64,000 nt of DNA from Candidatus Nomurabacteria bacterium. Lineage in GTDB: Bacteria > Patescibacteriota > Saccharimonadia > Saccharimonadales > JAGQNJ01. Shown here piece after piece: positions 1,921 to 26,850 of the stretch. The stretch is from positions 801,890-865,889 of the forward strand of contig CP060231.1 of assembly GCA_023898625.1 (NCBI GenBank). Direction: 5' to 3'. Each line of letters starts with the position of its first letter. The first letter of the stretch is position 1. The notes under the pieces are model-generated. The model saw nothing but the letters and a program-made list of their open reading frames with translations, was not told the origin of the DNA and did no database searches. The translations under genes and the position numbers were made by a program.

Positions 1921-2487
1921 ATGGCAGAACGTAATACAAGCACAAATCCAAGGCAAGTTCAGACCGAGCAAGACCCAAATCAATTAGACGAAAGAATGGT
2001 TCATATTGATCGCGTTGCTCGCGTAGTTAAGGGTGGTCGTCGATTTAGGTTTCGAGCATTAGTAATAGTCGGTGATCATAAGGGTAGAGTTGGTGCTGGA
2101 GTATCAAAAGGTCAGGATGTAACTACGGCAGTATCTAAGGCTACAGATGTCGCCAAAAAGAACATGGTTAAAATTTCACTATATAAAGACACTATTCCAC
2201 ATGAGACAGAGGCCAAAGTATCCGGAGCTAAGATTTTATTGAAGCCAGCCAGCCCTGGTACTGGTTTGATTGCTGGGGGAGTTGTCCGAACCGTATTAGA
2301 GGTAGCCGGAATTGGAAACGCTTTATCTAAATCGCTAGGTTCTTCAAACAAAATCAATATCGCTTATGCTACTATTGATGCTCTAAAGAATATGGAACCT
2401 GCCAGTAAGTGGGTCACCAAGAAAGATTCACCGACAAAGAAATCTACGGCAAAGACAACAACTAAGTCAAAGTCGGAGGATAAATAA
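1921..2487 (+). CDS. rpsE: 30S ribosomal protein S5 (with Lys/Thr-rich C-terminal tail)
   Basis: 188 aa containing VVKGGRRFRFRALVIVGD and KILLKPASPGTGLIAGG motifs. Confidence 0.95.
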   Translation: MAERNTSTNPRQVQTEQDPNQLDERMVHIDRVARVVKGGRRFRFRALVIVGDHKGRVGAGVSKGQDVTTAVSKATDVAKKNMVKISLYKDTIPHETEAKVSGAKILLKPASPGTGLIAGGVVRTVLEVAGIGNALSKSLGSSNKINIAYATIDALKNMEPASKWVTKKDSPTKKSTAKTTTKSKSEDK

Positions 2488-2488
2488 G

Positions 2489-2956
2489 ATGAAGTTTAAT
2501 CAGTTACAAACAGCGAAGTCAAAATCAATCACTCGTGTAGGGCGTGGTATTTCTGCTGGTAAAGGAAAGACAGCAGGGCGTGGCACCAAAGGCCAAAATT
2601 CTCGAACAGGTGGTGGTGTGCGACCAGGATTTGAGGGTGGTCAAAATCCATTAGCTCAAAGATTACCAAAGCTTCCAGGGTTTAAGTCCAAAACACCAAA
2701 GGCTGAGAACGTATACACTGGACAACTAGATAGTTTAGGGGCTAACATAGATAATTTTAAACTTGCACAAGCAGGTATTGTCACTAATCCATATACTAGA
2801 GTTAAGTTGATATTAAAAGGTGATGTTACAAAGAAAACGACTATTAAGGTGCAATCTGCAAGCAAATCAGCAGTTAAGGCCGTTGAAAAAGCTGGCGGTA
2901 AGGTAGAGATTATTGAGCGCCAAAAAAGACAAAAGCAAGAAAAAACAACAAAATAA
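2489..2956 (+). CDS. rplO: 50S ribosomal protein L15
   Basis: 155 aa with the Gly/Lys/Arg-rich N-terminus GRGISAGKGKTAGRGTKGQ. It starts 2 nt after the rpsE stop, leaving no room for rpmD (L30). Confidence 0.95.
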   Translation: MKFNQLQTAKSKSITRVGRGISAGKGKTAGRGTKGQNSRTGGGVRPGFEGGQNPLAQRLPKLPGFKSKTPKAENVYTGQLDSLGANIDNFKLAQAGIVTNPYTRVKLILKGDVTKKTTIKVQSASKSAVKAVEKAGGKVEIIERQKRQKQEKTTK

Positions 2957-3013
2957 GTTTTTATTCTGACAATTTATAGATACAATAAGATTAATGAGAG
3001 GGAATAGTCGTTA

Positions 3014-4519
3014 ATGAACTGGAAAATCATCCTTAAATCATTCACAAACAATGATATGCGAAAAAAGATATTTGCTGTCGTTGGAATGATTGTAATTTTT
3101 AGGATTTTGGCACATATACCTATTCCAATTGCTAATGGTGAAACTTTACAGCAAATTCTTGAAACACTTTTTAATTCCACTCAATCTTCACAGTTGTTAG
3201 GATTTATGGATGTTCTTTCGGGCGGGGCATTAGCTAATTTTTCAATAATGCTTGTAGGTTTGGGTCCGTTCATTAATGCCTCGATTATTATGCAGTTGCT
3301 AACAAGAGCAATTCCAAAGCTCGAAGCTCTGAATAAAGAAGGTGAATTTGGGCGAAAAAAAATAAATCAATACACAAGAGTATTGGCACTACCGCTTGCT
3401 ATAATTCAGTCAATAGGCTCAATATATTTGGTACGTCAAACAGCATCTAGTATTGGTGGCTTAGGCGATATCACGGCCAATGCTAGTTTTTCTCAATGGG
3501 TTTTGATGGTTTCCGCGCTTGCTGGAGGTGCAATGCTGTTGATGTGGCTAGGAGAGTTGATTACCGAACAAAATATCGGTAACGGTATTTCGTTAATTAT
3601 TACGATAGGTATCGTTAGTCAACTTCCAACAACCGGGATTAATTTATTAAATAGTGTTATCCAAGATGAAAAGAAATGGACCATTTTCGGTAAACAACTT
3701 CCAATTGATGAAAAGGCATTTTGGCTTAGTCTATTAATAATCTCGATAATTGTTATCACAACGATACTAGTGGTTAAACTAAATGAAGCTGCCAGAAACC
3801 TAACGGTTAACTATGCCAAACGTGTGCAAGGAAACAGAATTTATGGAGGAGTTACAACCATACTTCCGGTAAAATTAATAACAGCAGGTGTTATTCCAAT
3901 AATCTTTGCCGTAGCATTCTTGAGCGTACCTAGCTTTTTAGGACAAATCTTTTCCAATTCATCAAGTGATCGTTTGAAAGAAATTGGAACACACTTAGTT
4001 CAACTATTTCAACCACCAAGCCCTCAGACATTTGCTACGGGAGGCTGGCAACCTTATGTTTACCCCATAGTCTATTTCTTGTTAGTATTTATCTTTACAT
4101 TCTTTTATACATCGATTGCGTTTAACTCCAAAGAAATAGCTGAGAATCTCCAACAACAGGGTGGATTCATTGAAGGCGTAAGATCCGGAAATCAAACAGA
4201 GAAATATCTAAATAAGGTGATGAATAGATTGACGTTGTTTGGGGCTATAGCTCTTGGACTTTTGGCGGTTATGCCAATAATCGCTCAGGCATTTTTAGGT
4301 GCCAATATTTCATTAGGTGGAACCAGCTTGTTGATTTTGGTTGCTGTATCCTTAGAAACACTACGAATGCTCGAATCACAAGCCTTGATGTTAACATATG
4401 ATCAGTACGATCAACCCGATTATTTGTACAAATCATCAGAAACTTTATCAAAGAAACAAAATAGAATAAAGGTTATATCTAAACTTGCATTACCCAAAGG
4501 TAAGAAAAAAACTAAATAA
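3014..4519 (+). CDS. secY: Preprotein translocase subunit SecY
   Basis: 501 aa polytopic protein with GPFINASIIMQLL and GNGISLII motifs; follows rplO. Confidence 0.95.
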   Translation: MNWKIILKSFTNNDMRKKIFAVVGMIVIFRILAHIPIPIANGETLQQILETLFNSTQSSQLLGFMDVLSGGALANFSIMLVGLGPFINASIIMQLLTRAIPKLEALNKEGEFGRKKINQYTRVLALPLAIIQSIGSIYLVRQTASSIGGLGDITANASFSQWVLMVSALAGGAMLLMWLGELITEQNIGNGISLIITIGIVSQLPTTGINLLNSVIQDEKKWTIFGKQLPIDEKAFWLSLLIISIIVITTILVVKLNEAARNLTVNYAKRVQGNRIYGGVTTILPVKLITAGVIPIIFAVAFLSVPSFLGQIFSNSSSDRLKEIGTHLVQLFQPPSPQTFATGGWQPYVYPIVYFLLVFIFTFFYTSIAFNSKEIAENLQQQGGFIEGVRSGNQTEKYLNKVMNRLTLFGAIALGLLAVMPIIAQAFLGANISLGGTSLLILVAVSLETLRMLESQALMLTYDQYDQPDYLYKSSETLSKKQNRIKVISKLALPKGKKKTK

Positions 4520-4572
4520 GTAACGTCTTATTAGGCTAAAGAAGTGGGATTAGCTAGATATTTATTTCCCCC

Positions 4573-5722
4573 TGCATAAGTTCAGAAACATATTGGACTC
4601 CTGAAGGCTAGCGATAGCTAGCTGGGAAGGAGTCTTTTTATGCAACAGATATATACTGAATCATTCTTGAGGGGTTATGCTCGTAAGACTATGAGATCTA
4701 TACAAGACATAACCCAACACCCATATAAACATGTAATTGAGCAAAGACTCAAGATAATTCAGTTCTATGATGATTTCGGGGAACAAGCCACCAGACAAGC
4801 TTTTAGCGTAAGTAGGAGCACTGTGTTCAGCTGGAAGAGGCGTCTAAAGGATAACAATGGCTCACTCAGATGTTTAGCTCCAAAGAGCACTGCACCAAAA
4901 CACAAACGCAAGCGAATGGTAGATATGCGTATTACTAACTTTATTCTAGAACAAAGAAGCTTACACCCTAAGCTAAGTAAAGATAAGCTAGCCGTATTAC
5001 TCAAAGATGAGTGTACAGCTTGGAATCTAAAACCACCTTCGGCATCTACCGTAGGTAGAATCCTCAAAGACCTTAAGTTTCAAGGCCTATTACCAAAATA
5101 TACCAGGTTAACCGTTTCAGGTGCTACCGGCAAACTACTTGAGAAACAAAGTCGTAAGCCAAGACTCAATAAACAACGCAGGAATGGTTATCAGCCTGAG
5201 CAACCAGGAGATATGCTACAGATAGACACTATTGTTAAGTTTATAAACGGTATACGCCGTTATGTACTTACAGCAGTAGATTACAAAGGTAGATTCGGCT
5301 TTGCCTATGGCTATACTAGCCCCAGTAGTACCAACGCAGCAGACTTCCTGAACAAACTGCAAGCTGTTACCCCATTTGAGATCAGACGAGTGCATCATGA
5401 CAATGGTAGTGAGTTCTACAAACACTTCATAAGAGCCTGTGATGAACGAAACATTGAACAGCTCTGGAACTATCCCAAAAGACCTAAGAATAACGGAATG
5501 GTTGAAAGATTTAACCGTAGCATCCAAGAAGAGTTTATAGACTGGAACCTAGATAATCTAGCCTATGACCTTGAGGATTTCAATAATTCATTGATGGACT
5601 GGTGTATATGGTATAACACAAAAAGACCACATTATGGACTTGGTTTAAAAAGTCCAATGCAGTACTTACTAGAAGTGTTACAATTAAGCCAACAGGAGTC
5701 CAGAATGTTATGGACGGATACA
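4573..5722 (+). mobile_element. IS481-family insertion sequence (about 1.15 kb) with imperfect terminal inverted repeats and a 5-bp CCCCC direct repeat
   Basis: The left end is TGCATAAGTTCAGAAACATATTGGACTCCTG (4573-4603). The reverse complement of the right end is TGTATCCGTCCATAACATTCTGGACTCCTG (5693-5722). The inner 10 nt TGGACTCCTG are identical. CCCCC flanks both ends directly (4568-4572 and 5723-5727). Confidence 0.75.
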
Positions 5723-5746
5723 CCCCCTTTCATTCCCCAACCATAA
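4640..5746 (+). CDS. IS481-family DDE transposase (HTH plus rve integrase core)
   Basis: 368 aa. The DDE triad candidates are LQIDT, HHDNGSEF and NGMVERFNRSIQEEF, plus the YNTKRPHYGLG motif. The ORF reads through the right IR and stops 24 nt beyond it. Confidence 0.85.
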   Translation: MQQIYTESFLRGYARKTMRSIQDITQHPYKHVIEQRLKIIQFYDDFGEQATRQAFSVSRSTVFSWKRRLKDNNGSLRCLAPKSTAPKHKRKRMVDMRITNFILEQRSLHPKLSKDKLAVLLKDECTAWNLKPPSASTVGRILKDLKFQGLLPKYTRLTVSGATGKLLEKQSRKPRLNKQRRNGYQPEQPGDMLQIDTIVKFINGIRRYVLTAVDYKGRFGFAYGYTSPSSTNAADFLNKLQAVTPFEIRRVHHDNGSEFYKHFIRACDERNIEQLWNYPKRPKNNGMVERFNRSIQEEFIDWNLDNLAYDLEDFNNSLMDWCIWYNTKRPHYGLGLKSPMQYLLEVLQLSQQESRMLWTDTPPFIPQP

Positions 5747-5993
5747 CCAGTACAATATTACTCAGTACATTAAGTAGTTGAGTGGTACCAACAAGTCGTA
5801 GTTAATAACAGACTTATATCAAATCCTGCACTTACCTATTCTGCCTAAACAAAGTTAGTATTAGTCACATAGTATAGGCTAAGTATCAATAAGCTATACG
5901 ACATAATTCATCAACACCCCATCTCAACAACCAACAAATTAGTAGTACCTAAAATAGCAACTAATTTAGATAAATACCAAATCATTCATTAAT

Positions 5994-8900
5994 ATGAAAC
6001 TAAACCCCAAAGCCCTACTATCCAAACTACCACTACCTTTCTGGGCTTCCTTCTATCTATTTCTCATCATACTTACCATACCAGTACTAGCTTATATAGG
6101 CACACTCAGTAAAGCAGATCCCGGAACCCTAACAGTAACCATCAATCAAAAAACAGGCACAACAGACCCCAATCCTTCTTATACATCAGTATTCACTGTA
6201 GTATTCAATGAAGCCATAAACAGTAACACCTTCACCAACACAGACATTACTCTAGGTGGTACCGCACCAGGGCAAACTATCCAATCTATTACTGAAGCTG
6301 GAGCCTTCAACAAAACCACCTACGAAGTCCGAATCCAAGCCACCGGAGCTGGAACCATCATCCCAACCATAGCCCAAGAACTCATCACTGCCCAAAGCAA
6401 CAACACTAACACCAACCAAGCCTCTAGCTCATCAGACAATACAGTTACCTATGATGGAACCTATGCACCGAATGAATTTGTTACCACCTGGAAGACAGAC
6501 AACCCAGGAATAAGTGCCAGTAATCAAATAACTATACCTACACATTGGACTGGAGGATACAACTACAACGTAGACTGGGGAGACTCTACCACTAGCTCTA
6601 ACCAAACCGGAGACTCCACCCATACTTACTCAACACCAGGAACATACACCGTAAAAATATCCGGAACATTTCCTAGAATACATTTTGGAAAAGGTGTTTC
6701 AGATTATATAAAAATCTTAACTGTAGAGCAGTGGGGTTCAAACCCTTGGACTTCAATGAACGAGTCATTTTACTTCCCATATAATCTAACCATCCCTGCT
6801 ATAGATGCTCCGAACTTATCCAATGTAACTGATATGAGTTCTATGTTCTCGAAGGCAACTTCACTAAATCAATCACTTAATCATTGGGATGTAGGTAACA
6901 TAACTAATATGAGTAGAATGTTTAATGAGGCAAGTACATTTAACCAATCTTTGAACAATTGGAACACATCAAATGTGACAAATATTTCTGGAATGTTTGC
7001 ATACGCCACTTCTTTTAATGGTCTTATAAATGATTGGACCACATCAAACGTAACTGATATGTCTGGAGTGTTTGTAGGCGCTACAATCTTCAATCAGCCA
7101 CTAAACAATTGGGATACCAGTAGTGTAACCGACATGAGTTGGATGTTTTATCAAGCGACTTCTTTCAATCAATCTTTGAGCAATTGGAATACATCAAATG
7201 TGACAAAATTAAATATAATGTTCACCGAAGCGGCAGCTTTCAATCAGCCACTAAATAACTGGAATGTCGTTAATGTACTTGATTTATCAAATCTATTTGC
7301 TCGAGCGACTTCATTCAATCAACCTTTGAATAATTGGAATACCAGTAATGTTACGAATATGTCTGGACTGTTTGCGGGCGCTGCATCATTCAATCAACCT
7401 TTGAATAATTGGAATACCAGTAATGTTACGAATATGTCTGGACTGTTTGTGGGCGCTACGTCGTTTAACCAGCCACTTAGCGGCTGGGACTTGAATAGTG
7501 TGACAAATATGACGATGATGTTTTCTAGTACTTCAATTCAAGTTGCGCCTGGAGTAACATTATCTCCTTCCGGCCTCTCCACCACCAACTATGACTCTAC
7601 CCTAGCCGGTTGGTCATCCCAATCATTACAAAGTGGTGTCACCTTTGATGCCGGCACTAGCAAATACTGTAACTCTGAAACCCAAAGGCAAAGTATAATA
7701 ACCAATCACTCATGGACTATTAACGATGGTGGTAAAGATTGTAGTTCTATTGGCTCAACTGAATTCATTACTACCTGGAAGACAGACAACTCAGGAGTAA
7801 GCGGAAGCAATCAAATAACTGTTCCTACCTTTTCAGGAGAAACCTACAACTACAACGTAGACTGGGGAGACTCTACCACTAGCTCTAACCAAACCGGAGA
7901 CTCCACTCATACTTACTCAACACCAGGAACCTACACAGTCAAGATAACTGGAACCTTTCCTAGAATATATTTCGATGGAACAACCGATCACGATAAGATC
8001 CTAACAGTTGAACAATGGGGAACTAACCCTTGGACATCCATGAATGGTGCATTTTCGGGCGCATCCAACATCACAATCCCTGCAACTGACGCACCAGATT
8101 TATCCGGTGTGACTGATATGAACGGCATGCTCCAGGGGGTAAGTACCTTTAATAGTAATATAAACAACTGGGATGTCAGCAACGTAACTAATATGGGGAG
8201 TATGTTTGCGGGAACAACAAATTTCAACCAACCTCTCAACAGCTGGGATGTCAGCAATGTAACAGCAATGGATGGAATGTTTTTCGGGGCAACGTCTTTT
8301 AACCAAAATATTGACAGTTGGGACGTTAGTTCAGTAATTAATATGAGCGGTATGTTTTCTGGGGCAAGCGATTTCAATCAGCCCTTAAATAGCTGGGATG
8401 TCAGCTCGGTAGAAAATATGACAGGAATGTTTGGCGGTGCACTAGATTTTAACCAACCTCTAAATAATTGGAATACTGAGAATGTAACAGAAATGGTGGG
8501 AATGTTTGCTAGCGCAACTTCTTTTAATCAGTCTCTAGATTCATGGGATGTAGGTAATGTAACATTAATGAATTACATGTTTGGTAATGCTAATGGATAC
8601 TTAGAGCAAGCTTTTGCAGGTGTTCCATATGAAGATTGGCCAGCAATGTTCCAAGCATTATACAATCTTCCGATGTCAGGCTTATCAACCGCTAATTATG
8701 ATGACACTCTCATCTCATGGGCACAGCAAACAGTTCAACAAGGAGTAGTATTTGGTGGTGGAACGAGTAAGTATTGTTTGTCGGAGACTTATAGACAAGC
8801 ATTAATTAGTAACGATTCGTGGTCTATAACTGATGCCGGCAAAGATTGCCAAGGAGTGTCACTAGATAAGCCTCAAAACTTATCAGGCACGCCTTTTACT

Positions 8901-11900
8901 AGAATTGTTGAACTAGACTGGGATTCTGTAACTGGATCACACCATTACGATGTGCAATACAAAAAGACCTCTGAAAGTTCATGGGTTGATTACGTGGATT
9001 CAACAGTTTATGGGTCGTTTATTTCCATCTATGATCTAGATCCACAGACATCCTACGATTTTAGGGTTAAGACAGTTAGAAGTGATAGTATTACTAGTGA
9101 TTGGTCGGATATCCTAACGGTTACAACTCTACCACAATCAACGTATCATATAACAAATTGTCAACAGTTGCAGGCAATAAGTATCGACCCAGTTACTTAT
9201 GAGTTAGGAGATGCCTCCGGGAATTACATCATTGATAATAATATTGATTGTAGTGAGTCATCAAATTGGGATTGGCAAGGACTCCTGCCTGTAGAGATGC
9301 AACAAACTACAGGTTTTGTGAGCATATATAACATTACTAACGGAGGAGATTTTACCGGAAATTTTGAAGGCCAAGGACATACCATTAGTGGACTATACCA
9401 AGATTCTGATAGATATGGTGGGCTATTTTATACTATAAAGTACAGTAGTATCAAAGATATAAATCTCGCCAACATAGATGTAAATTTTACGTCTAATCAT
9501 ATAACGTCAAGTTGTCAGAATGAGTCTTCGTTTAGTGTTATCGATGAATCTAATGTTTGTAGTGCTATAGGTGGATTGGTTGGTGGCATGAGGGAAAACT
9601 CTAAGATTAGTAATATCTCAGTGGGTGGCCAAATACATGTTGACTCTACCCCCATTAGCAATGCGAATGGTTACGAAACAACAAATATTATTGGTGGCCT
9701 TGTTGGCGTTGGGTCTGATACGTCTTTTGATGGTGTTGTTGATATCAATAACTCATCATCTAACGTAAATATTACTGTTTCTAGCTCAAATAAGACGGTA
9801 GCACAGCCTGGGCTTCAAGATTTTGTAGCAAAAATATTTAGCCTGGATGTTGGTTATGAGAATAATGACCCGAACTATACTAGTATTATTGCTGGTGGGG
9901 TTATAGGTTCTGCGTTGGGATTTGAGATTTCAAATGTTCAGGCTAACGGAGGGGTGTCAACTAACGGTTATTATAATGTTAGATCAGTTGGTAATCTAGC
10001 TGGAGTTTTTGCTTCTGCTTTTGATTCTTCTATAAGTAATAGTACTGCAGGGGGAACTATCGAATGTCAGGGCGGAGGATCAATGAGCTCAATTGGTGCA
10101 GGTGTCGGTATTGTTATGAATATGATCCCGCTTAACCTTAGCAACTCTGAGAATATTTTTAGCAATGCATCTATACACGATATCTCAACATCAACAAATA
10201 TAAATTGTAGTGTTGATTATAGTTCATTTAGTGTTGGAGGTGTCATTGGGGCAACCTTTTCAATGGCTCCAGCAATAGAAGCTATCGAGCCAGAAGTTGT
10301 ATATAACAATCTTTCATCGACAGGCAACATAAGTATAGGGGCCAGTAAATATCGATCTTACACAAATTTTGCATACTCCATATTCACATACTTTGGTGGT
10401 CCACATAAAATTTTGGATGGTGTCGGTGGTATTATTGGGTCTGTTGCTGGTGGGCCAAGTGGTGCTGATTTTAAAATAAGTAAAACATCTGTAAAATCCT
10501 CTCACTCTAGTTCTAATATAACAGTAAAGTCTGGTATACCTATCGGTGGTCTTGTTGGTTTAACAGAGGGAAGAGTACTGATTGAGGAGAGCGACTCGTC
10601 AGGCAACATAGTAAGTGATACTACAGAATGGGCACAACAGCCTTCTGAATGTTACTTCGCACCAGATGCCAATAGTGATTGCGCTGGGTACTATTTTAGT
10701 TATGGTATTGCCGGCGGGCTAGTCGGTATGGCAAACGGCAATTGTTCTTATCCAATAACAGAATTCCAAGACGACAATACAAACTGTGAGAATCGTATTG
10801 ATATACAAAATGCAAAAGCAACGGGCAATGTCGAAGCACTCAATGGTAGGGGCATATCGGGCGGGTTAGTCGGGACGGCGAATAATACATTAATAAGCCG
10901 TTCATACTCTTCTGGAGAAGTACAATCGAGGATTGCCGGCGGGCTAGTCGGGGTAATTATCTCCGATTCGGTAAATAATCAAGGTATTGAAAACTCGCAT
11001 TCAACCAGCCAAGTAACTTCAACGTATGACCCAAGTAATCCAACATATTTTGATGAAGGGTTTTTGTTCGGAGGATCCATACCAATCGCTGGTGGACTAG
11101 CGGGGATATCCATGGCGCAAATATCTTCATCATATGCTTCTGGAGATGTTACCATTCAACAATCTGCCAGCCGGATAGGTAACGGAAGGTTATATGGGGT
11201 AGGTAGTGCCGGAGGGCTGGTTGGTTATGGAATCGCTGGCTTAGATACATCTAACTTAATTACCCTACCACCAGAGGATAGGCCAAACCCAGTGAATTTT
11301 GCACCATTCTTTACGCGTCCATCAACGGATCCACTCGGTGTTTTTGGCGTCGTTAACTCTTTTGCTACCGGTAAGGTTAGCGTACCTAGTAACGAGGTTT
11401 ATGTACCTATTATTGATAAGAATGTTCCTGTTATTAGTGCTGGTTTGATTGGTATGTATCCCGAATATCGTGATCCAGATTATATTTCACAGAATAATAT
11501 TTTGCCACTAGATTTTAATAGTTATTATGATGTTGAAAAAACAGGACAAGACGAATGTGTTAAAGATATTTCTGTAATTATTGGGGCACTTGCGTATCCA
11601 GATATGTATTCCGACTGTCACCCCATCAACACCGATGGTTCTCAACCTAACTACTTCAAGAACAACTCTACCAACCCCCCCTTGAACCAATGGAACTTCT
11701 CTACTATATGGAAGACTAACTGTACTAACTATCCAGACTTTGTAGGCTCAACCAACTGTAATCCATCCAACCCTCCAGAAAACCCAGGCAATGGCAATCC
11801 TCCAACAACTCCAACTACCCCAACCACCCCTACAACTCCTACAACCCCAACCAATCCTCCAAAGACTCCTAGTACCACCAAACCACCTACTCCCACAACT

Positions 11901-13769
11901 CCAACCACTCCTCCATCTCCAACAACTCCCACAGAATCAGACACCCCTTCATCTTCATCCAATAATCAGTACTACTCCAACCCTCAATCTACAGCACTAC
12001 CAGCTCCCCTATCTAAAGTAGTCAAAGGTTCCTTCATGCAATCTCTAGTGAACTATACTGCTAACAATATACCTAAACCCGTAGCTAAAGCCATTCCATA
12101 CAGCCTACTCATACTTCTACTAGCTCTCTCAGCCCTCTATGGCTATTCTAGCTATCTAGAAAACAAAAGAAGACAAGCTCTCCAAGCTCTCATCACTCGC
12201 TTTAAATCTCTACTATCGGCTAGAGCTACCTTCCTACGTATTACCTCCCACTACATCAATACACCGATCACTAAGATCCAAGGAACCATAGAACTACTAG
12301 CTATGGGTACTACTTCAACCACAACTGCTAATACCACAACAGCAAGTACCAACACCACAAACAATAACTCAAGTACTAACAATAACTCTACAGGCTCTAA
12401 TACCAACCCTCCTACTAATACCAGCTCTACTCCTCCAAGTAACACTACTAGCTCTACCAGTAATCCAGGCACTACCTACACCCCTAACTCTAGCTCCCAG
12501 ACTAGTTCAGCTTCCGTAAACAGCTCTAGCAATCAGGCTAGTACCACCAGCTCCATCAGTTCTACTCCTAGCTCCCCTAATAGCATTAGTATACCTATTA
12601 ATACTAACTCTAGCTCTCAGTCTGGTTCAGCTTCCGTGTTCACCTCAACCCTAGCCACTACAGCTACCACTCTAACTATCCCAGAAGCCTCTATCGTAGC
12701 CTCTAAGTCAGCCATCAAGAGTCTCACTAACCATGCCAATGAACTACTAGATGAAGGACAATCCCTCACCGGAAGACAACAAGCTAACATCAGAAACCTA
12801 GAACAAAGAAAAGGACTTAGCTTCCTAACCCATCCTTTCTTCTGGCTCCCAGTAGTAGTTATCTCTACCTTAGTAGTACTACTCAACATCATCTTCATTC
12901 AAGCTGAACGCTATACCCCTACAGCTATTACTATTGCTTCTCAACTTATCCTAGGCTTCGTTGGTGTTATAGCTTTAGGTGTCAGCTACTACTTCTACCG
13001 TTCCTTCCAGTCCCAAAGACAAGCTCTACTAACCGAACAAGAAATAGAACAAGAGTTCAATGCTCGCCAAGCTAACTTCATAGCTGATGCCTACAACAAG
13101 CTCAACGATGACATCATAATCCTAGAAGGTGTCAGCCAAGACCTAGCTAAGTATCCTAAAGTCCGTAACTTCAACCAAGGCCTCAATGAACTAAAAGACA
13201 TAGTCTCCCAACTAGAAAAACTCAGCAACCTATCTAAGCATGTCCCAGGACTGCAATACCACACCAACCTAAGCAGTACTATATCTACTACCCTAACTAA
13301 CCTCAGATCCCTAGCTGACCAACAGAACATCACTATAACTACCAACAACATCAAACCCAACCAAAACGTCAACATAGAAGCTAATGCTCTAACCCATCTA
13401 CTGTCAGCTCCACTCAAGAATGCTATCTCAGCTAGTACTGCTGGCTCCAATATAGAACTATCCCAATCCAACCACAAAGCCAACAAATCTAACCAGATAA
13501 ATAAACCCAACACAGTAACTACCAACCTTAGCAATACCAACCTACCTATCCAAATAACTATTACCGATCATGGCAAAGGCATACCCCCAGAACAACTAAA
13601 CAATATCTTTACCCCATTCAACTCAGCCCATAGCCTAGAACACTTCACTGATACCGGACTAGGACTAGACCTCTACCTATGCAAAGTAATTGCCGAACAA
13701 TACAACGCCAACCTAACCATCACCAGCCAACCAGGAGAAGGCACAACAGTGATAGTGGGGATGGGGTGA
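5994..13769 (+). CDS. Giant (2,591 aa) membrane-anchored adhesin-like protein fused to a C-terminal histidine-kinase module
   Basis: Single uninterrupted ORF. Domain order: N-terminal TM anchor; Ig-like segment; two modules of PKD-like (YNYNVDWGDS...HTYSTPGTYTVKI) plus about 25-aa DUF285/BspA-type LRRs (FNQPLNNWNTSNVTNMSGMF); FN3; about a dozen GLUG-type GGLVG repeats; PT-rich stalk; TM; H-box (ATFLRITSHYINTPITKIQGTIELL); S/T-rich tract; two TM helices; HATPase_c boxes (LKNAISAS, DHGKGIP, IFTPF, GLGLDLYLCKVIAEQYNANLTITSQPGEGTTV). Confidence 0.85.
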   Translation: MKLNPKALLSKLPLPFWASFYLFLIILTIPVLAYIGTLSKADPGTLTVTINQKTGTTDPNPSYTSVFTVVFNEAINSNTFTNTDITLGGTAPGQTIQSITEAGAFNKTTYEVRIQATGAGTIIPTIAQELITAQSNNTNTNQASSSSDNTVTYDGTYAPNEFVTTWKTDNPGISASNQITIPTHWTGGYNYNVDWGDSTTSSNQTGDSTHTYSTPGTYTVKISGTFPRIHFGKGVSDYIKILTVEQWGSNPWTSMNESFYFPYNLTIPAIDAPNLSNVTDMSSMFSKATSLNQSLNHWDVGNITNMSRMFNEASTFNQSLNNWNTSNVTNISGMFAYATSFNGLINDWTTSNVTDMSGVFVGATIFNQPLNNWDTSSVTDMSWMFYQATSFNQSLSNWNTSNVTKLNIMFTEAAAFNQPLNNWNVVNVLDLSNLFARATSFNQPLNNWNTSNVTNMSGLFAGAASFNQPLNNWNTSNVTNMSGLFVGATSFNQPLSGWDLNSVTNMTMMFSSTSIQVAPGVTLSPSGLSTTNYDSTLAGWSSQSLQSGVTFDAGTSKYCNSETQRQSIITNHSWTINDGGKDCSSIGSTEFITTWKTDNSGVSGSNQITVPTFSGETYNYNVDWGDSTTSSNQTGDSTHTYSTPGTYTVKITGTFPRIYFDGTTDHDKILTVEQWGTNPWTSMNGAFSGASNITIPATDAPDLSGVTDMNGMLQGVSTFNSNINNWDVSNVTNMGSMFAGTTNFNQPLNSWDVSNVTAMDGMFFGATSFNQNIDSWDVSSVINMSGMFSGASDFNQPLNSWDVSSVENMTGMFGGALDFNQPLNNWNTENVTEMVGMFASATSFNQSLDSWDVGNVTLMNYMFGNANGYLEQAFAGVPYEDWPAMFQALYNLPMSGLSTANYDDTLISWAQQTVQQGVVFGGGTSKYCLSETYRQALISNDSWSITDAGKDCQGVSLDKPQNLSGTPFTRIVELDWDSVTGSHHYDVQYKKTSESSWVDYVDSTVYGSFISIYDLDPQTSYDFRVKTVRSDSITSDWSDILTVTTLPQSTYHITNCQQLQAISIDPVTYELGDASGNYIIDNNIDCSESSNWDWQGLLPVEMQQTTGFVSIYNITNGGDFTGNFEGQGHTISGLYQDSDRYGGLFYTIKYSSIKDINLANIDVNFTSNHITSSCQNESSFSVIDESNVCSAIGGLVGGMRENSKISNISVGGQIHVDSTPISNANGYETTNIIGGLVGVGSDTSFDGVVDINNSSSNVNITVSSSNKTVAQPGLQDFVAKIFSLDVGYENNDPNYTSIIAGGVIGSALGFEISNVQANGGVSTNGYYNVRSVGNLAGVFASAFDSSISNSTAGGTIECQGGGSMSSIGAGVGIVMNMIPLNLSNSENIFSNASIHDISTSTNINCSVDYSSFSVGGVIGATFSMAPAIEAIEPEVVYNNLSSTGNISIGASKYRSYTNFAYSIFTYFGGPHKILDGVGGIIGSVAGGPSGADFKISKTSVKSSHSSSNITVKSGIPIGGLVGLTEGRVLIEESDSSGNIVSDTTEWAQQPSECYFAPDANSDCAGYYFSYGIAGGLVGMANGNCSYPITEFQDDNTNCENRIDIQNAKATGNVEALNGRGISGGLVGTANNTLISRSYSSGEVQSRIAGGLVGVIISDSVNNQGIENSHSTSQVTSTYDPSNPTYFDEGFLFGGSIPIAGGLAGISMAQISSSYASGDVTIQQSASRIGNGRLYGVGSAGGLVGYGIAGLDTSNLITLPPEDRPNPVNFAPFFTRPSTDPLGVFGVVNSFATGKVSVPSNEVYVPIIDKNVPVISAGLIGMYPEYRDPDYISQNNILPLDFNSYYDVEKTGQDECVKDISVIIGALAYPDMYSDCHPINTDGSQPNYFKNNSTNPPLNQWNFSTIWKTNCTNYPDFVGSTNCNPSNPPENPGNGNPPTTPTTPTTPTTPTTPTNPPKTPSTTKPPTPTTPTTPPSPTTPTESDTPSSSSNNQYYSNPQSTALPAPLSKVVKGSFMQSLVNYTANNIPKPVAKAIPYSLLILLLALSALYGYSSYLENKRRQALQALITRFKSLLSARATFLRITSHYINTPITKIQGTIELLAMGTTSTTTANTTTASTNTTNNNSSTNNNSTGSNTNPPTNTSSTPPSNTTSSTSNPGTTYTPNSSSQTSSASVNSSSNQASTTSSISSTPSSPNSISIPINTNSSSQSGSASVFTSTLATTATTLTIPEASIVASKSAIKSLTNHANELLDEGQSLTGRQQANIRNLEQRKGLSFLTHPFFWLPVVVISTLVVLLNIIFIQAERYTPTAITIASQLILGFVGVIALGVSYYFYRSFQSQRQALLTEQEIEQEFNARQANFIADAYNKLNDDIIILEGVSQDLAKYPKVRNFNQGLNELKDIVSQLEKLSNLSKHVPGLQYHTNLSSTISTTLTNLRSLADQQNITITTNNIKPNQNVNIEANALTHLLSAPLKNAISASTAGSNIELSQSNHKANKSNQINKPNTVTTNLSNTNLPIQITITDHGKGIPPEQLNNIFTPFNSAHSLEHFTDTGLGLDLYLCKVIAEQYNANLTITSQPGEGTTVIVGMG
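6471..8849 (+). repeat. Internal tandem duplication of a PKD-like plus LRR plus cap module inside the giant gene (module 1 at 6471-7742, module 2 at 7758-8849)
   Basis: Both modules start (N/T)EF(V/I)TTWKTDN and end GGKDC/AGKDC. An approximately 85-nt stretch is nearly identical (6566-6650 vs 7847-7931). Confidence 0.85.
7312..7461 (+). repeat. Two near-perfect tandem 75-bp (25-aa) LRR units
   Basis: Copies at 7312-7386 and 7387-7461 read cattcaatcaacctttgaataattggaataccagtaatgttacgaatatgtctggactgtttg. They differ only in the last few bases. Confidence 0.9.
8871..9135 (+). other. Fibronectin type III-like domain of the giant protein
   Basis: PQNLSGTPFTRIVELDWDSVTGSHHYDVQYKKTSESSWVDY...YDFRVKTVRSDSITSDWSDILTVTTLP matches the FN3 pattern. 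Confidence 0.7.
9400..11240 (+). other. GLUG-motif repeat region of the giant protein
   Basis: Recurrent (I/V)(G/A)GL(V/A)G followed by N/S-rich turns: IGGLVGGM, IIGGLVGVG, IGGLVGLTEG, IAGGLVGMANG, ISGGLVGTANN, IAGGLVGVI, IAGGLAGIS, AGGLVGYG. Confidence 0.6.
11761..11965 (+). repeat. Pro/Thr-rich low-complexity stalk (PTTPTTPTTPTTPTNPPKTPSTTKPPTPTTPTTPPSPTTPT)
   Basis: Direct reading of the translation. It generates the antisense GVVGVVG shadow ORF at 11729-11962. Confidence 0.9.
12180..12300 (+). other. HisKA-like dimerisation/phosphoacceptor helix with the candidate phospho-His (codon 12249-12251)
   Basis: ENKRRQALQALITRFKSLLSARATFLRITSHYINTPITKIQGTIELL, compared with the canonical FLANVSHELRTPLTSI H-box. 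It lies immediately after the TM helix at 12091-12160. Confidence 0.55.
13383..13766 (+). other. HATPase_c (catalytic ATP-binding) domain of the giant protein
   Basis: N-box LKNAISAS, G1 ITDHGKGIP, F IFTPF, and G2 TGLGLDLYLCKVIAEQYNANLTITSQPGEGTTV. Confidence 0.75.
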
Positions 13770-13779
13770 GAAAAAGTGC

Positions 13780-13808
13780 TTTACATGATCTTGTACATCT
13801 GATAAAAT
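13780..13808 (+). promoter_or_regulatory. Candidate sigma70-type promoter for infA and the downstream alpha operon
   Basis: TTTACA (13780-13785), a 17-nt spacer, then TAAAAT (13803-13808), 20 nt upstream of the infA ATG. Confidence 0.35.
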
Positions 13809-13827
13809 TAAATCTTGTTATATATTT

Positions 13828-14049
13828 ATGGCTAGCAACAAAGAAGTAATCGAGTTAAATGGTGTGATTGTGGAAACCTTACCGGGTACACAATTCAAAG
13901 TTGAACTCGAGAATGGCCATCAAATTATAGCTCATGTTGCTGGAAAGATGCGCAAACACTACATACGTATCGTGCCAGGTGACAGCGTTACGGTTGAGTT
14001 GACCCCTTATGATCTCACTAAGGGAAGAATCACCTATCGCAAATCATAA
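13828..14049 (+). CDS. infA: Translation initiation factor IF-1
   Basis: 73 aa with [46 protein letters not shown]. Confidence 0.95.
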
Positions 14050-14119
14050 ATAATAATACGCAGTGAGTTGCAATATATTGCAATCCGTAATCACCCACGA
14101 TAAGGAGACGATCAAAAGG

Positions 14120-14236
14120 ATGAAAGTACGTGCAAGTGTAAAGAAGATCAGCCCCGACGATAAGATAGTTCGTCGTAAAGGGCGACTTTACGTTATCAAT
14201 AAGCTAAAACCAAAGCATAAGCAGAGGCAAGGTTAA
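14120..14236 (+). CDS. rpmJ: 50S ribosomal protein L36 (Cys-free, non-zinc form)
   Basis: Not in the ORF track (38 aa): [38 protein letters not shown]. An AAGGAG RBS lies upstream, and it sits between infA and rpsM. Confidence 0.9.
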
Positions 14237-14238
14237 TT

Positions 14239-14625
14239 ATGGCAAGAATTTCTGGAGTTACAATTCCAAATGACAAACAAATTGAGACTGCCCTAACTTA
14301 TGTATATGGTATTGGCCCCAAATTCAGCAAAGATATACTGAAACAAGCCAAAATCGATCCGACAATTCGTGTCAATAAATTAACTGATCAAGAAATTTCA
14401 CAAATTCAAGATGTTATAAATAACAATTATACAGTTGAAGGTGAATTACAAAGAATTGTCACGTCTAACATCAAACGACTTAAGGAAATAAATTCTTATC
14501 GTGGAATGCGCCACAAGGCAAACCTACCGTCTCGCGGTCAACAAACTCGAACTAATGCACGGACTCGACGTGGCAAGAAGACTACAGTTGGTGGAACTAA
14601 GAAGAAAGCACCAGCTAAGACTTAG
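14239..14625 (+). CDS. rpsM: 30S ribosomal protein S13
   Basis: 128 aa MARISGVTIPNDKQIETALTYVYGIG... Confidence 0.95.
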   Translation: MARISGVTIPNDKQIETALTYVYGIGPKFSKDILKQAKIDPTIRVNKLTDQEISQIQDVINNNYTVEGELQRIVTSNIKRLKEINSYRGMRHKANLPSRGQQTRTNARTRRGKKTTVGGTKKKAPAKT

Positions 14626-14643
14626 GTCAGGAGAATATAGGAT

Positions 14644-15048
14644 ATGGCAGAGAATACTACAAGTACAACAACTATCAAAAAGAAAAAAGCTAAGCGCGCA
14701 GTTCCATATGGACAAGTTCATGTATTGGCGACTTTTAACAACACAATAATTACTTTCACTGATAGTAAGGGTGGTGCATTAACCTATGCTAGTGCGGGTG
14801 GTTGTGGATTTCGTGGGTCAAAAAAGGGTACGGCATACGCAGCGCAAGTCGCGGCAGAAAAAGCAACACAAGCAGTTAAGCAAATGCATGGTATGAGTAA
14901 AGTTGATGTGTATATTAAAGGTATTGGTCTTGGTCGGGATGCAATCGTCAGAGTTCTAAATACTATGGATGTTCGCGTCGAAAAGTTAATTGATGTAACT
15001 ACCGCTCCACATGGTGGTGTTAGACCAAAGAAAGCACGAAGGGTTTAG
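14644..15048 (+). CDS. rpsK: 30S ribosomal protein S11
   Basis: 134 aa ending TPAPHGGVRPKKARRV, with NNTIITFTDSKG. Confidence 0.95.
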   Translation: MAENTTSTTTIKKKKAKRAVPYGQVHVLATFNNTIITFTDSKGGALTYASAGGCGFRGSKKGTAYAAQVAAEKATQAVKQMHGMSKVDVYIKGIGLGRDAIVRVLNTMDVRVEKLIDVTTAPHGGVRPKKARRV

Positions 15049-15052
15049 TATT

Positions 15053-15670
15053 ATGGCAAGAGATTTACAACCAATTGTTAAAATGAGTCGTCGTGAAGGT
15101 TATGCCTTGCACCCAAAGGCACACAAAGCGTTGGTTAAGCGGGCTACACCAGCAAACCCAGGTGGTCGAAATAGTAGAAACAAACCTAGCCAATATGCGA
15201 TACAATTGCGCGAAAAACAAAAAGTCAAGCGATTGTATGGATTATTAGAACGACAATTCCGTAAATTAATGGCTGAGGCCGACCGTACAGAAGGACAATC
15301 TGGCGAACATCTATTGATATTCTTAGAAAGGCGCTTAGACAACGCGGTTTACCGTAGCGGCCTAGCAGTTAGTAGACGTTCAGCAAGACAGTTAGTTACT
15401 CACGGTCATTTTATGCTAAATGGACGTCGCGTAGACATACCCTCAATCCGTATTAAGCCTGGTGATGAAATCGTTCTTCGAGAAGCGAGCAAATCTAACG
15501 AGTATTTTAAGAAGATTGATGATGTCAGTCCAGGAGGTCAAGAAAATGAAGCCTCATGGCTTACTATAGATAGAAAGAAGTTCAAAATAAGCATCACCGG
15601 TATTCCAACACGTGATGAAGTTGAACCAGATATAAATGAGCAATTAATTGTTGAGTATTACTCACGATAA
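15053..15670 (+). CDS. rpsD: 30S ribosomal protein S4
   Basis: Start trimmed to the ATG at 15053 (MARDLQPIVKMSRREG). Contains the S4 domain LDNAVYRSGLAVSRRSARQLVTHGHF. Confidence 0.93.
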   Translation: MARDLQPIVKMSRREGYALHPKAHKALVKRATPANPGGRNSRNKPSQYAIQLREKQKVKRLYGLLERQFRKLMAEADRTEGQSGEHLLIFLERRLDNAVYRSGLAVSRRSARQLVTHGHFMLNGRRVDIPSIRIKPGDEIVLREASKSNEYFKKIDDVSPGGQENEASWLTIDRKKFKISITGIPTRDEVEPDINEQLIVEYYSR

Positions 15671-15680
15671 GGAGGCAAAG

Positions 15681-16619
15681 ATGTCAAAAAATATATATGT
15701 ACCAGGAGTAGTGTCAGTTGATGAACATTCTGCTACAAGTGCAACTTTTGCAATCGAACCATTACATACAGGCTATGGAATGACACTAGGTAACAGCTTA
15801 CGACGTGTTCTTCTTTCAAGTATTGCTGGCGCAGCGGTAACGGGCTTTAGGATTGAAGGAGCAACACATGAATTCACAACTGTATCTGGAGTCAAAGAAG
15901 ATATTGTTGATATTATGTTGGCACTTAAAGGTGTTCGTTTCAAAGTATTTTCAGACGAACCACAGGTCTTATCTATAAAGAAATCAGGAAAAGGTCCAGT
16001 ATTGGCCAAAGATATTCAAGCTACTGCTGATGTAGAAATAGTTAATGCTGATCACATTATCTGCACAATAGACGACCCTAAAACTAGTTTAAACATTGAA
16101 ATTACGGTTGAAACAGGTCGTGGCTATCGCCCGGTTGACGAAACAGCCCATCGAAAATCTAGTGATATGATATCGGTTGACGCGATCTTTAGTCCTGTAC
16201 AAAGAGTACGATATAAAGTTGAAAACACCCGTGTTGGCCAAATGACCGACCTTGACAAACTAATATTAGTCATCGATACAGACGGAAGCATTACTCCGAA
16301 GGACGCTTTCGAAGAAGCTGCAGCCATTTTAGTTAATCAATATACTGCGCTTGCTGGTCAAACTAAAGTTGAGGCTGCTCCCAGTCTTGTAGCAACTCAA
16401 CCTGTTGAGGAGGAAGCTTCTGAGGACAGTGCAGAGTTGATGACGCCCATCGAAGATCTCAATCTTACGGCTCGCACAAGTAATGCACTTGTTAATAACG
16501 ATATACATACATTGAAGGACTTGTTAAGTTTAGGTGATGCTGAATTACGAGACCTAAAGGGATTTGGAGCAAAAGCTCTTGACGAAGTTAAAGATAAAAT
16601 GGCGGAGTTGGAGATTTAA
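15681..16619 (+). CDS. rpoA: DNA-directed RNA polymerase alpha subunit
   Basis: Start at the ATG at 15681 after a GGAGG RBS. Contains GYGMTLGNSLRRVLLSSI and a C-terminal domain with LNLTARTSNAL. Confidence 0.95.
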   Translation: MSKNIYVPGVVSVDEHSATSATFAIEPLHTGYGMTLGNSLRRVLLSSIAGAAVTGFRIEGATHEFTTVSGVKEDIVDIMLALKGVRFKVFSDEPQVLSIKKSGKGPVLAKDIQATADVEIVNADHIICTIDDPKTSLNIEITVETGRGYRPVDETAHRKSSDMISVDAIFSPVQRVRYKVENTRVGQMTDLDKLILVIDTDGSITPKDAFEEAAAILVNQYTALAGQTKVEAAPSLVATQPVEEEASEDSAELMTPIEDLNLTARTSNALVNNDIHTLKDLLSLGDAELRDLKGFGAKALDEVKDKMAELEI

Positions 16620-16621
16620 TT

Positions 16622-17068
16622 ATGCATCGCCATGGATACGTAGGTCGAAAATTTGGACGTGAACGTGATCAACGCGAAGCTTTAATTAAAAGTCTAGCTG
16701 AGTCGTTAATTGTTCAAGAATCAATTGAAACCACATTACCAAAAGCTAAGGAACTTGTTCCTTATGTTGAAAAATTGATTACTAAAGCAAAAAAGGGGGA
16801 TTTGCACAGTCGACGTCTTGTTGTTAGTAGATTAATGACTAAAGAGACTGCAAATAAATTAGTTGATGCAATTGCGCCTAACCTAACCGATCGCACCAGT
16901 GGTCACTTGAGAATTGAGCGAACACGTTTACGTCGTGGAGATAATGCTCAACTAGCAAAGGTAAGTTTTGTAGACGATCTATCTTTGGATGAAAAGAAAG
17001 AGTCCAAGGATGACGCTAAATCAAAGACTCTCACTTCAAAGTCAAAGAAGAAAGACGAGGTGAAGTAA
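16622..17068 (+). CDS. rplQ: 50S ribosomal protein L17 (with Lys-rich C-terminal tail)
   Basis: 148 aa MHRHGYVGRKFGRERDQREALIKSLA... Confidence 0.95.
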   Translation: MHRHGYVGRKFGRERDQREALIKSLAESLIVQESIETTLPKAKELVPYVEKLITKAKKGDLHSRRLVVSRLMTKETANKLVDAIAPNLTDRTSGHLRIERTRLRRGDNAQLAKVSFVDDLSLDEKKESKDDAKSKTLTSKSKKKDEVK

Positions 17069-21208: not shown

Positions 21209-21865
21209 ATGTTTGCTTTAATATTGCTTGGATTTTTTGGGTTTCTGACTTACCGCAGTGCTAGCCATTATGAAGATGACATAGTTCAACTACCAACAAA
21301 GCTTTCTAATCGACTGGGTCAACTTTGGAATGTTGCTCATCAAGGGATGCGTGAAAACAGGTTCTTGCGTGCCGAGAAAGCTTTATTATTGATACTAAGG
21401 ATCGATGAAAAAAATGCTGCGGCATATAATCGGCTTGGAATATTGTATGCAAAACAAAAAGAGTATAAAGATGCGATTGATTGCTTTGAGATTGCTTCAA
21501 GTATCGAGACATCGCCATCAAGTTTACATAACCTTGGTCTTATATATTACGAAACGGAACATTACGACAAAGCTGGCGCGGCCTTCGAGCAGGCACTAAA
21601 ATTAGAAGATGGACTTGCTACTAGACATATTGCGTACGCTAAAGTTCAAGAAAAGCTCGGTAATGATAAGTTGATGTTTCAAGAACTAGAGAAGGCCGTA
21701 GAGTTAGAACCAAACAAAGAATCATTAACTTTACTGCATCGTGCCTATGAGAGTCGTAATCGCGAAGAAGACGCAGATAAAATTCAAAAAAGGCTAGATA
21801 AACTAGTTGTCCCAAGTGGTAAACCGAAAAAGGTCATCAGACATAAGCGCAGAGTTGTAATTTAA
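21209..21865 (+). CDS. Membrane-anchored TPR-repeat protein
   Basis: 218 aa with an N-terminal hydrophobic helix and TPR-like AYNRLGILYAKQKEYKDAIDCFE / LHNLGLIYYETEHYDKAGAAFEQAL. Confidence 0.7.
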   Translation: MFALILLGFFGFLTYRSASHYEDDIVQLPTKLSNRLGQLWNVAHQGMRENRFLRAEKALLLILRIDEKNAAAYNRLGILYAKQKEYKDAIDCFEIASSIETSPSSLHNLGLIYYETEHYDKAGAAFEQALKLEDGLATRHIAYAKVQEKLGNDKLMFQELEKAVELEPNKESLTLLHRAYESRNREEDADKIQKRLDKLVVPSGKPKKVIRHKRRVVI

Positions 21866-25240: not shown

Positions 25241-25912
25241 ATGCGGAAATCCGTAATAATTGCGGGCTTATTTGTGGCGAGCTATATTTGGTTTGTCAAT
25301 AAACCTGCTGTTAAGGCTCAGGAAGCGAATAATCCTGTAGCACAAGAGCAAACTACACAACCAGAACCAGTTGTTGTGGAAGTACAAAAGGGCGATAATT
25401 TATCAAAAATTGCCAAGAAATACGAAACCACGTATTCGCGTCTTTATGATGCTAACATTCAAATTAATGACCCAGATGTTATACATCCGGGAGATAAGAT
25501 TAGAATACCAACTGCAAACGAACAATTAGTAAGTCGTAAACAACCTACTAACTCAAATGTTGTAACGACCACAAACAGAGTAAATACATCAGTCCGTAAG
25601 ACTACGCCAAAAAATACGAAAGCCAGGAAACGTCAAGTAACAAAGCAAACGACTCAAGCTTCTCCAGTGACTACTGGAAGTGTTTGGGATAATTTAGCTC
25701 GTTGCGAGTCTGGCGGAAACTGGTCAATTAATACCGGAAATGGATATTATGGTGGCCTTCAGTTTACGGCTTCAACATGGAGAGCCGTTGGCGGAACAGG
25801 CTTGCCACATCAAAACTCACGAGAAGAACAGATACATCGTGCACAAATTCTACAAGCTCGTAGTGGCTGGGGGCAGTGGCCAGCATGCACAAAAAAACTT
25901 GGCTTAAGATAA
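25241..25912 (+). CDS. Secreted LysM-domain plus resuscitation-promoting-factor (Rpf-type transglycosylase) protein
   Basis: LysM: VEVQKGDNLSKIAKKYETTYSRLYDANIQINDPDVIHPGDKIRIP. Rpf core: VWDNLARCESGGNWSINTGNGYYGGLQFTASTWRAVGG. Confidence 0.85.
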   Translation: MRKSVIIAGLFVASYIWFVNKPAVKAQEANNPVAQEQTTQPEPVVVEVQKGDNLSKIAKKYETTYSRLYDANIQINDPDVIHPGDKIRIPTANEQLVSRKQPTNSNVVTTTNRVNTSVRKTTPKNTKARKRQVTKQTTQASPVTTGSVWDNLARCESGGNWSINTGNGYYGGLQFTASTWRAVGGTGLPHQNSREEQIHRAQILQARSGWGQWPACTKKLGLR

Positions 25913-25930
25913 TCGCCGTATATTACATTT

Positions 25931-25964
25931 AGCCTTGGTAGCTCACACTATCAAGGCTATTTTA
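25931..25964 (+). terminator. Rho-independent terminator after the rpf-like gene
   Basis: AGCCTTG...CAAGGCT hairpin followed by ATTTTAAG. Confidence 0.55.
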
Positions 25965-26044
25965 AGATTATCTAGACTACAAAATATATGAGAAATTCAC
26001 ATGCTAATGTATAATTGTACTTAATAATAATAAAGGAGGCGTAC

Positions 26045-26749: not shown

Positions 26750-26850
26750 ATATACAATACTAAACCGTAGGCACTGAATTAGAGATTATCAATATTAACA
26801 CAAACTTGATTACATTCGATTTAGACTAAGATATAATAATCTGTGCTACC

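Follow-up and report, generated by a model that had tools for sequence, protein, structure and literature searches.

The DNA analyzed is a stretch of 64,000 nucleotides (nt), referred to as the window, from the genome of a member of the Saccharibacteria deposited as Candidatus Nomurabacteria bacterium (assembly GCA_023898625.1). In the window secY, the last gene of the S10/spc ribosomal cluster, and infA, the first gene of the alpha-operon unit, are separated by an insertion sequence (IS) resembling the IS481 family and by a giant gene coding for a protein of 2591 amino acids (aa). According to the listing of open reading frames (ORFs) and to Pfam matches, the order is rplO, secY, transposase ORF, 2591-aa ORF, infA, rpmJ, rpsM, rpsK, rpsD, rpoA. 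The rpsM, rpsK, rpsD and rpoA genes are Pfam-confirmed downstream of rpmJ, and rplQ closes the infA unit. The secY stop and the infA start lie 9308 nt apart. Gene order and coordinates around secY and infA had been given correctly in an original prediction, made from the sequence of the window. The ribosomal genes at the two sides are:

1921-2487: rpsE
2489-2956: rplO (Pfam match)
3014-4519, plus strand: secY, last gene of the S10/spc ribosomal cluster (Pfam SecY, 2.3e-95)
13828-14049, plus strand: infA, first gene of the unit infA, rpmJ, rpsM, rpsK, rpsD, rpoA, rplQ (Pfam eIF-1a, 2.2e-26)
ending at 14236: rpmJ (Pfam match)

The window secY is 100% identical to that of the independent assembly GCA_046350715.1 and of several metagenome contigs. 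Loci fetched for comparison are denoted by L numbers; L011 is the GCA_046350715.1 locus, and L012, L013 and L014 are metagenome contigs. The order secY, giant gene, infA was found also in GCA_046350715.1, the left junction of the IS is reproduced in L015, and the junction between IS and giant gene in L103 and L106. Because independent assemblies reproduce both the arrangement and the IS junctions, an assembly artefact is ruled out.

The secY-infA junction in Saccharibacteria

In Bacillus and many other phyla secY is followed by adk, map and infA. This order is not universal, as E. coli keeps adk, map and infA elsewhere. The original prediction held that the intervening DNA occupies the place where adk and map normally sit, and that neither gene is present in the window. 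The latter statement is correct: E. coli and B. subtilis Adk and E. coli Map, used as tblastn queries, gave no match in the 64 kilobases (kb) better than E = 2.9, and ten further window ORFs of 174–254 aa contain neither ADK nor Peptidase_M24 according to Pfam, matching other families only. The former statement does not hold for Saccharibacteria. A scan with the SecY protein, limited to one genome per species, yielded 80 loci (64–95% SecY identity), of which 76 hold both secY and infA and were used for gap statistics. The comparison of synteny with relatives, suggested along with the prediction, shows that infA directly follows secY, at a median distance of 75.5 nt. The gap measures at most 300 nt in 68 of the 76 loci, and exceeds 600 nt (0.87–2.6 kb) in 7. 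Neither adk nor map lies between secY and infA in any of the 76; with E. coli and B. subtilis queries no match was found in the flanks of the species loci, up to 10 kb at each side, nor across all the 119 loci fetched.

The same picture is provided by the cultivated Southlakia epibionticum ML1, the gene order of which was taken from the transposon-sequencing supplement of PMC10633639. The genes for L36 (SEML1_0451), IF-1 (SEML1_0452, 430047-430271), SecY (SEML1_0453, 430389-432020) and L15 (SEML1_0454) are contiguous, and a nucleoside monophosphate kinase of the adenylate kinase family (SEML1_0172, PF00406) and a type I methionyl aminopeptidase (SEML1_0173) reside together beside ftsA (SEML1_0174), distant from secY (PMC10633639 supplement). 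Since neither the sampled loci nor S. epibionticum carry adk or map between secY and infA, the absence of the two genes after secY is a clade-wide trait of Saccharibacteria and nothing has been displaced. It is tempting to take this absence for the scar of an insertion; it is a feature of the clade. Literature searches on Saccharibacteria with adenylate kinase, DUF285 or IS481 returned nothing useful.

Extra genes reside between secY and infA in 7 of the 76 species. They encode one P-type ATPase, one AstE/AspA-like protein and several unknown ORFs, some on the opposite strand. Cargo of 1.2–3.3 kb was identified also between rplO and secY in 7 of 72 species (L027, L052, L056, L062, L067, L071, L075), and includes ABC transporters, an AIR-synthase-like protein and a 2-hydroxyacid dehydrogenase. 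The junctions at both sides of secY are insertion-tolerant, and act as recurrent landing places for cargo in these reduced genomes, each being occupied in about 9% of the species. The intervening DNA had been called accessory, and unusual for so conserved a locus. Its accessory nature is borne out by the short gap of the 68 loci; the IS site is empty in otherwise identical contigs, and the giant gene, at this position, is restricted to a narrow lineage. As to its being unusual, the 9.3 kb are the largest secY-infA gap seen, but the presence of cargo as such is not exceptional. The case represents ordinary genome plasticity, though a neat example of it, and none of the findings alters current concepts.

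Upstream of infA lies a promoter-like element:

13780-13808, plus strand: TTTACA, 17 nt and TG-extended TAAAAT, predicted to be the ancestral promoter of infA and the alpha operon, 19 nt upstream of the infA start codon

The hexamer pair TTTACA-17-TAAAAT reported in the original prediction was found at these positions, and TG precedes the -10 box. Promoter-like sites number 41 in the interval 2400-16700, as against 39.2 ± 6.3 in shuffled sequences, and a single match is not above chance; significance derives solely from conservation in relatives. In the 70 nt upstream of infA, extracted from every locus, the pattern CTTTACA, 17–18 nt, TGnTAnAAT, followed by the leader GTTATAT(A)TTTATG, occurs 15–19 nt before the ATG in 63 of the 76 species loci; most of the others feature TTTGCA-type variants. 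All 11 window-like loci carry it, whether or not the giant gene or the insertion is present, and it lies at the same distance from infA in L002 and in L017 to L020, where secY abuts infA. The predicted promoter is therefore ancestral and not, as had been proposed, a fresh one. Because relatives that lack any insertion conserve it at this position, infA is predicted to head its own transcription unit across the clade, and the secY-infA junction to be a boundary between units, as such plausibly tolerant of insertions.

No terminator-like fold better than those of shuffled sequences was detected after secY or after the giant gene by terminator search and folding, and no RNA family was found by Rfam in the interval 2400-16700 at E ≤ 0.1. 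Read-through from secY into the IS and the giant gene, and from the latter into infA, is possible. The infA leader (13809-13830 in the window; L017 to L095) is almost invariant across species of 64–97% SecY identity. A Shine-Dalgarno sequence is not visible in it, and the leader may serve as a conserved signal for translation or regulation.

The IS481-like element and the giant gene

The element next to secY is made of the following parts:

4568-4572: left target-site duplication CCCCC (single CCCCC in the empty sites L011, L012, L013 and L014)
4573-5722, plus strand: IS481-like element, 1150 base pairs (bp), TG..CA ends, breakpoints set by alignment to empty-site contigs
4573-4609 and 5687-5722: imperfect terminal inverted repeats of about 37 nt, 27 of 37 positions matching, with one indel as judged by eye
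4640-5746, plus strand: transposase ORF, 368 aa, helix-turn-helix (HTH) and rve/rve_3 regions (Pfam rve_3, rve, HTH_32)
5723-5727: right target-site duplication CCCCC

The window matches L011 to L014 up to 4573 and again from 5723, with an overlap of 6 nt, and corresponds to L011/L012 plus 1150 bp and a duplication of 5 bp. The site is occupied in the window and in L015, which comes from another sample and features the same left junction, and is empty in L011 to L014. In L012 the flanks are 100% identical to the window, yet the site is empty, and the insertion is polymorphic in the population. For the IS, the assumption of an insertion is thereby confirmed. The IS sits in a CCCCC run 49 nt after the secY stop, between the latter and the 5' region of the giant gene, and interrupts no ORF.

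Five contigs differ from the window in the left flank, and in each of them this flank directly adjoins TGCATAAGTTC, which fixes the left end of the element. At least five such flanks join IS copies 99–100% identical, though some of the contigs possibly are low-coverage joins across the repeat. Identity of the copies found in other samples ranges from 99.2 to 100%, which points to an active, multicopy, polymorphic element, and documents its apparent activity in a Saccharibacteria population. The transposase is encoded by a single ORF with rve fold and no programmed frameshift, and contains a DD(35)E triad (D196, D254, E289). The best NCBIfam model is IS481 (NF033577), with 178 bits for a cut-off of 224; IS3 scores 91.8 bits versus 160. 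There is no stop codon for the transposase within the element, and the ORF ends at a TAA located 24 nt into the flank; each insertion site would consequently provide a different C-terminal tail.

The giant gene can be divided into regions that differ in conservation among strains. Some of its sequences recur at a second locus beside the dus gene, discussed below.

5723-5993, plus strand: 5' region, which accompanies the gene; the first 110 nt or so are common to the dus-linked locus
5994-13769: giant gene, 2591 aa (Pfam: DUF285 in 5 stretches, PKD, C-terminal HATPase_c)
5994-6847, plus strand: conserved 5' part, N-terminal membrane anchor (aa 13-41) and first module
6848-11614, plus strand: hypervariable ectodomain, two PKD-like and PARCEL/DUF285 repeat modules, a possible fibronectin-like unit, GGLVG-repeat region
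11615-13769, plus strand: conserved 3' part, Pro/Thr linker, transmembrane (TM) segment (aa 2030-2048), H-box (His2086), insert, TM hairpin (aa 2277-2332), HATPase_c (aa 2464-2588)

The repeats match DUF285 (PF03382; 510.9 bits for a cut-off of 25, 4.7e-156) and TIGR02167 (148 bits for a cut-off of 30, 2.9e-44). A match to the Mbov_0838 family (390.7 bits, 8.6e-117) stays below the cut-off of 500. The fibronectin-like unit was judged by eye, and the GGLVG-repeat region weakly matches the GLUG motif (E 0.097). At the C-terminus, HATPase_c (PF02518) scores 57–59 bits versus a cut-off of 26.4 (E 2.3e-15). HisKA (PF00512) is a weak match, 20.1 bits versus 26.9, and the H-box SHYINTP (His2086) is found upstream of the TM hairpin. 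The best NCBIfam kinase matches are of PhoR, PnpS and WalK type, all far under the cut-offs. The layout of the kinase region (12081-13769, aa 2030-2591) is unusual, in that about 150 aa rich in Ser/Thr/Asn, and the TM hairpin, intervene between His2086 and HATPase_c; a second H-box-like helix follows the hairpin, with Tyr in place of the histidine.

OmpR, used as tblastn query, revealed no response-regulator receiver domain in the 64 kb of the window. The kinase module (602 aa) has a stand-alone homologue of 517 aa, P0123, 55% identical and aligned over 96% of the module, which resides in a non-ribosomal context. The search for kinase-module homologues retrieved 6 proteins only, and added no second downstream context. 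A weak candidate promoter of the giant gene, TTCATT-16-TACAAT (5729-5756), may be present in the block common to the paralogues; the promoter scan registered no qualifying site in the 5' region 5723-5993.

Strains differ mainly in the ectodomain. In GCA_046350715.1 the allele measures 2751 aa, and the IS is missing. The 5' end (5723-6847) is 91% identical to this assembly at the nt level, and the stretch 5994-6847 85% identical to L005; the 3' end (11615-13769) is 98% identical to GCA_046350715.1, and 98–99.7% to L001, L003 and L005. The central 4.8 kb, compared to the L001/L011 and L005 alleles, either cannot be aligned colinearly or show 67–81% identity in scrambled order. The flanks are 98–100% identical, and protein identity of the ectodomain is 49–61%. 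Many metagenome contigs break just 3' of secY or within the giant gene, as expected of a variable and repetitive gene.

A second locus, found in L096, L099, L102 and L005, comprises dus, a gene of 87/89 aa, the same 5' region and a giant gene. Homology of the secY-linked and dus-linked sequences starts at the C-run (alignment A1; window 5723-5830, L096:11211-11330, L102:1930-2040). L117 shares its assembly with L016, and here too a giant gene is found near dus. L118 belongs to the same assembly as L018, in which the secY-infA junction is intact and SecY is 80% identical, and encodes at the dus locus a homologue of 4065 aa, sharing with the window protein the N-terminal anchor, the GGLVG-repeat region and the block preceding the linker. 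Because an assembly with an intact secY-infA junction has a dus-linked homologue, the dus-linked locus is probably the older home of the family, and the secY-linked copy would be a lineage-specific duplicate that brought along its own 5' region. Repeats in the dus-linked L096:13906-14159 are up to 95.7% identical to the secY-linked L011:12878-13131, and 73–77% to the window allele, which hints at exchange between the two loci.

The edge of the homology between paralogues coincides, within about 1–3 nt, with the target of the IS. By a rough estimate the chance of such a coincidence is about 2% in a spacer of 320 nt. Target preference of the IS was considered as a cause and rejected, as the five other left flanks have no common motif, the comparison covering only the bases that adjoin the left end of the element.

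At the secY site, L002 is informative. Its secY region is 83% identical to the window at the nt level, the InfA protein is identical, and secY and infA are 184 nt apart. The final codons and the stop of the kinase gene survive in this spacer as a remnant of 49 nt, which borders the infA promoter on its upstream side. The remnant aligns with a score of 28, versus 17.2 ± 2.0 in shuffled sequences, and none of 300 shuffles reaches 28. The scar indicates that the common ancestor already had the giant gene at this site, and that the L002 lineage lost it by deletion. In L017 to L020 (80% SecY identity) secY abuts the infA promoter, leaving no room for a remnant.

Origin of the arrangement

The findings are best explained by two unrelated events of different age at a permissive operon boundary, at which adk and map never resided and infA kept an ancestral promoter. 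We regard this account as likely. In Saccharibacteria the normal state would be secY directly followed by infA, the latter served by its own conserved extended -10 promoter of the sigma-70 type; at such a boundary between two transcription units extra DNA would be tolerable. In the ancestor of the species group a copy of the giant gene, with its own 5' region, would have been duplicated into the gap between secY and infA, the source being the older home of the family beside dus. The copy would have been kept in the species of the window, the strains of which came to differ strongly in the ectodomain, most likely through recombination of its repeats with one another and with the paralogue; the sister lineage would have deleted the copy. 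Much later, and in this strain only, the IS481-like element would have inserted into the CCCCC run, duplicating 5 bp and hitting no gene. The infA and alpha-operon genes would still rely on the ancestral promoter. Of this account, the synteny, the limits and polymorphism of the IS, the conservation of the promoter sequence, the dus-linked locus and the scar in L002 are established from the data, and the direction of the duplication, the recombination, the function of the promoter and the tolerance of the boundary are inferred.

Several points weigh against this account. At the left side of the L002 spacer, a remnant of the giant-gene 5' region is not significant (score 16 versus 17.7 ± 2.3); the similarity is visible by eye in alignment A1, and was not relied on. 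For the direction of the duplication the evidence comes from two relatives (L117 and L118), and the L118 protein was read to aa 3034, short of the kinase end. A dus-linked paralogue in the organism of the window is suggested by contigs that come from the same samples (L096 with L004, L101 with L015). In L005 (1-10745) dus and the 87-aa gene are joined to a giant gene of 2707 aa, and this to infA. The dus region of this contig is 87% identical to L096, its right half 98.6% identical to the window, and L005 is probably a chimera across the paralogues; the alternative is a real rearrangement breaking the ribosomal cluster, which two events as outlined do not predict. Activity of the infA promoter, read-through and a promoter proper to the giant gene are all predictions drawn from sequence.

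The secY-giant gene-infA order might be an old, stable trait of the lineage, the IS alone being new. The giant gene is indeed present in every conspecific assembly spanning the site (the window and GCA_046350715.1; partially L012 to L014 and L016), and the scar kept by the sister lineage, about 83–86% identical at the nt level, indicates that the gene predates the species. However, in L017 to L020 and in some 70 more distant species secY abuts the infA promoter, and the dus-linked homologue in one such relative points to the secY copy as derived. This possibility is unlikely. The original prediction had contemplated an ancient conserved arrangement with adk and map always elsewhere; the part on adk and map is right, the part on the ancient state is not.

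A more elaborate reading assigns a common role to all parts of the locus. The giant protein would be a sensor by which an epibiont perceives the surface of the host, the secY copy would share transcripts with the ribosomal operons, strains would re-assort the ectodomain with the dus-linked paralogue, and the IS would modulate or uncouple expression. Co-transcription is suggested by the lack of a visible terminator at either side of the giant gene. If so, the level of the giant protein would be tied to growth rate, and the two loci would form a variable-receptor system. We consider the whole of this reading quite improbable. Of most interest among the results is that giant adhesin-kinase genes, variable between strains, form a family with two loci; they are possible candidates for host recognition in epibiotic Saccharibacteria.

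Mobilization of the giant gene by the IS, through one-ended or composite transposition, would explain why homology of the paralogues starts at the C-run, a boundary coincident with the target duplication. The IS is apparently active and multicopy, and the transposase ORF reads through the right end. Yet conspecifics harbor the giant gene with a single CCCCC and no IS, as expected of a never-occupied site, the window features a simple insertion with a clean 5-bp duplication, no IS is found at the dus-linked junction in L005, L096, L099 and L102, and the five other left flanks, in which the bases next to the left end were compared and none is a confirmed duplication, have no common sequence. Mobilization is very unlikely. 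Hardly tenable is the view that a recent accessory insertion displaced or replaced adk and map, with a new promoter restoring transcription of infA and the alpha operon, as the lack of both genes in the window, the 9.3 kb of non-ribosomal DNA and the gene order of Bacillus and many phyla are outweighed by the lack of adk and map at the species loci and in their fetched flanks, by their location beside ftsA in S. epibionticum (PMC10633639) and by the infA promoter, which insertion-free relatives carry at the same position.

Neighboring genes and comparison with known systems

Away from the junction, the window region 25241-27615 encodes a LysM/transglycosylase-like protein, a TM7S3/TM198-like membrane protein and a sortase, adjoining a minus-strand ORF of 921 aa (27738-30503); together these genes make a possible cell-surface cluster. 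The conspecific contig L007 carries at 8452-10149, 3' of a TPR gene, a large serine recombinase of 565 aa. The position corresponds to about 22 kb in the window, after the TPR gene at 21209-21865, where small unknown ORFs are found instead, and is a further strain-variable site. In the ribosomal cluster rpsE directly abuts rplO, with no rpmD (L30) in between, and the gene tables of relatives show the same order. Loss of L30 is a known trait of the candidate phyla radiation (CPR)/Patescibacteria.

The locus resembles the spc/alpha junction of Bacillus type (secY-adk-map-infA-rpmJ-rpsM) in the flanks, made by rplO-secY and by infA-rpmJ-rpsM-rpsK-rpsD-rpoA-rplQ, and differs from it because Saccharibacteria lack adk and map there, as well as rpmD between rpsE and rplO. 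The inserted element shares with the IS481 family a single rve ORF with N-terminal HTH, a length of 1150 bp (about 1–1.3 kb in the family), inverted repeats, TG..CA ends and a 5-bp duplication. It differs in falling below the cut-off of the hidden Markov model, as a divergent relative, and in having no internal transposase stop.

The giant protein is reminiscent of two different systems. As in PARCEL/DUF285 (BspA-like) proteins of Mycoplasma, Listeria and other bacteria, the repeats are strong matches, and their variation among strains as alleles recalls that of variable surface proteins; in contrast to those proteins, they are fused to a membrane-anchored histidine kinase module in one ORF of 2591 aa, with no lipoprotein anchor. 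HATPase_c, a putative H-box (SHYINTP) and transmembrane segments recall two-component sensor kinases, from which the protein differs in having an ectodomain of about 2000 aa, and a low-complexity insert and a TM hairpin between the H-box and the ATPase.

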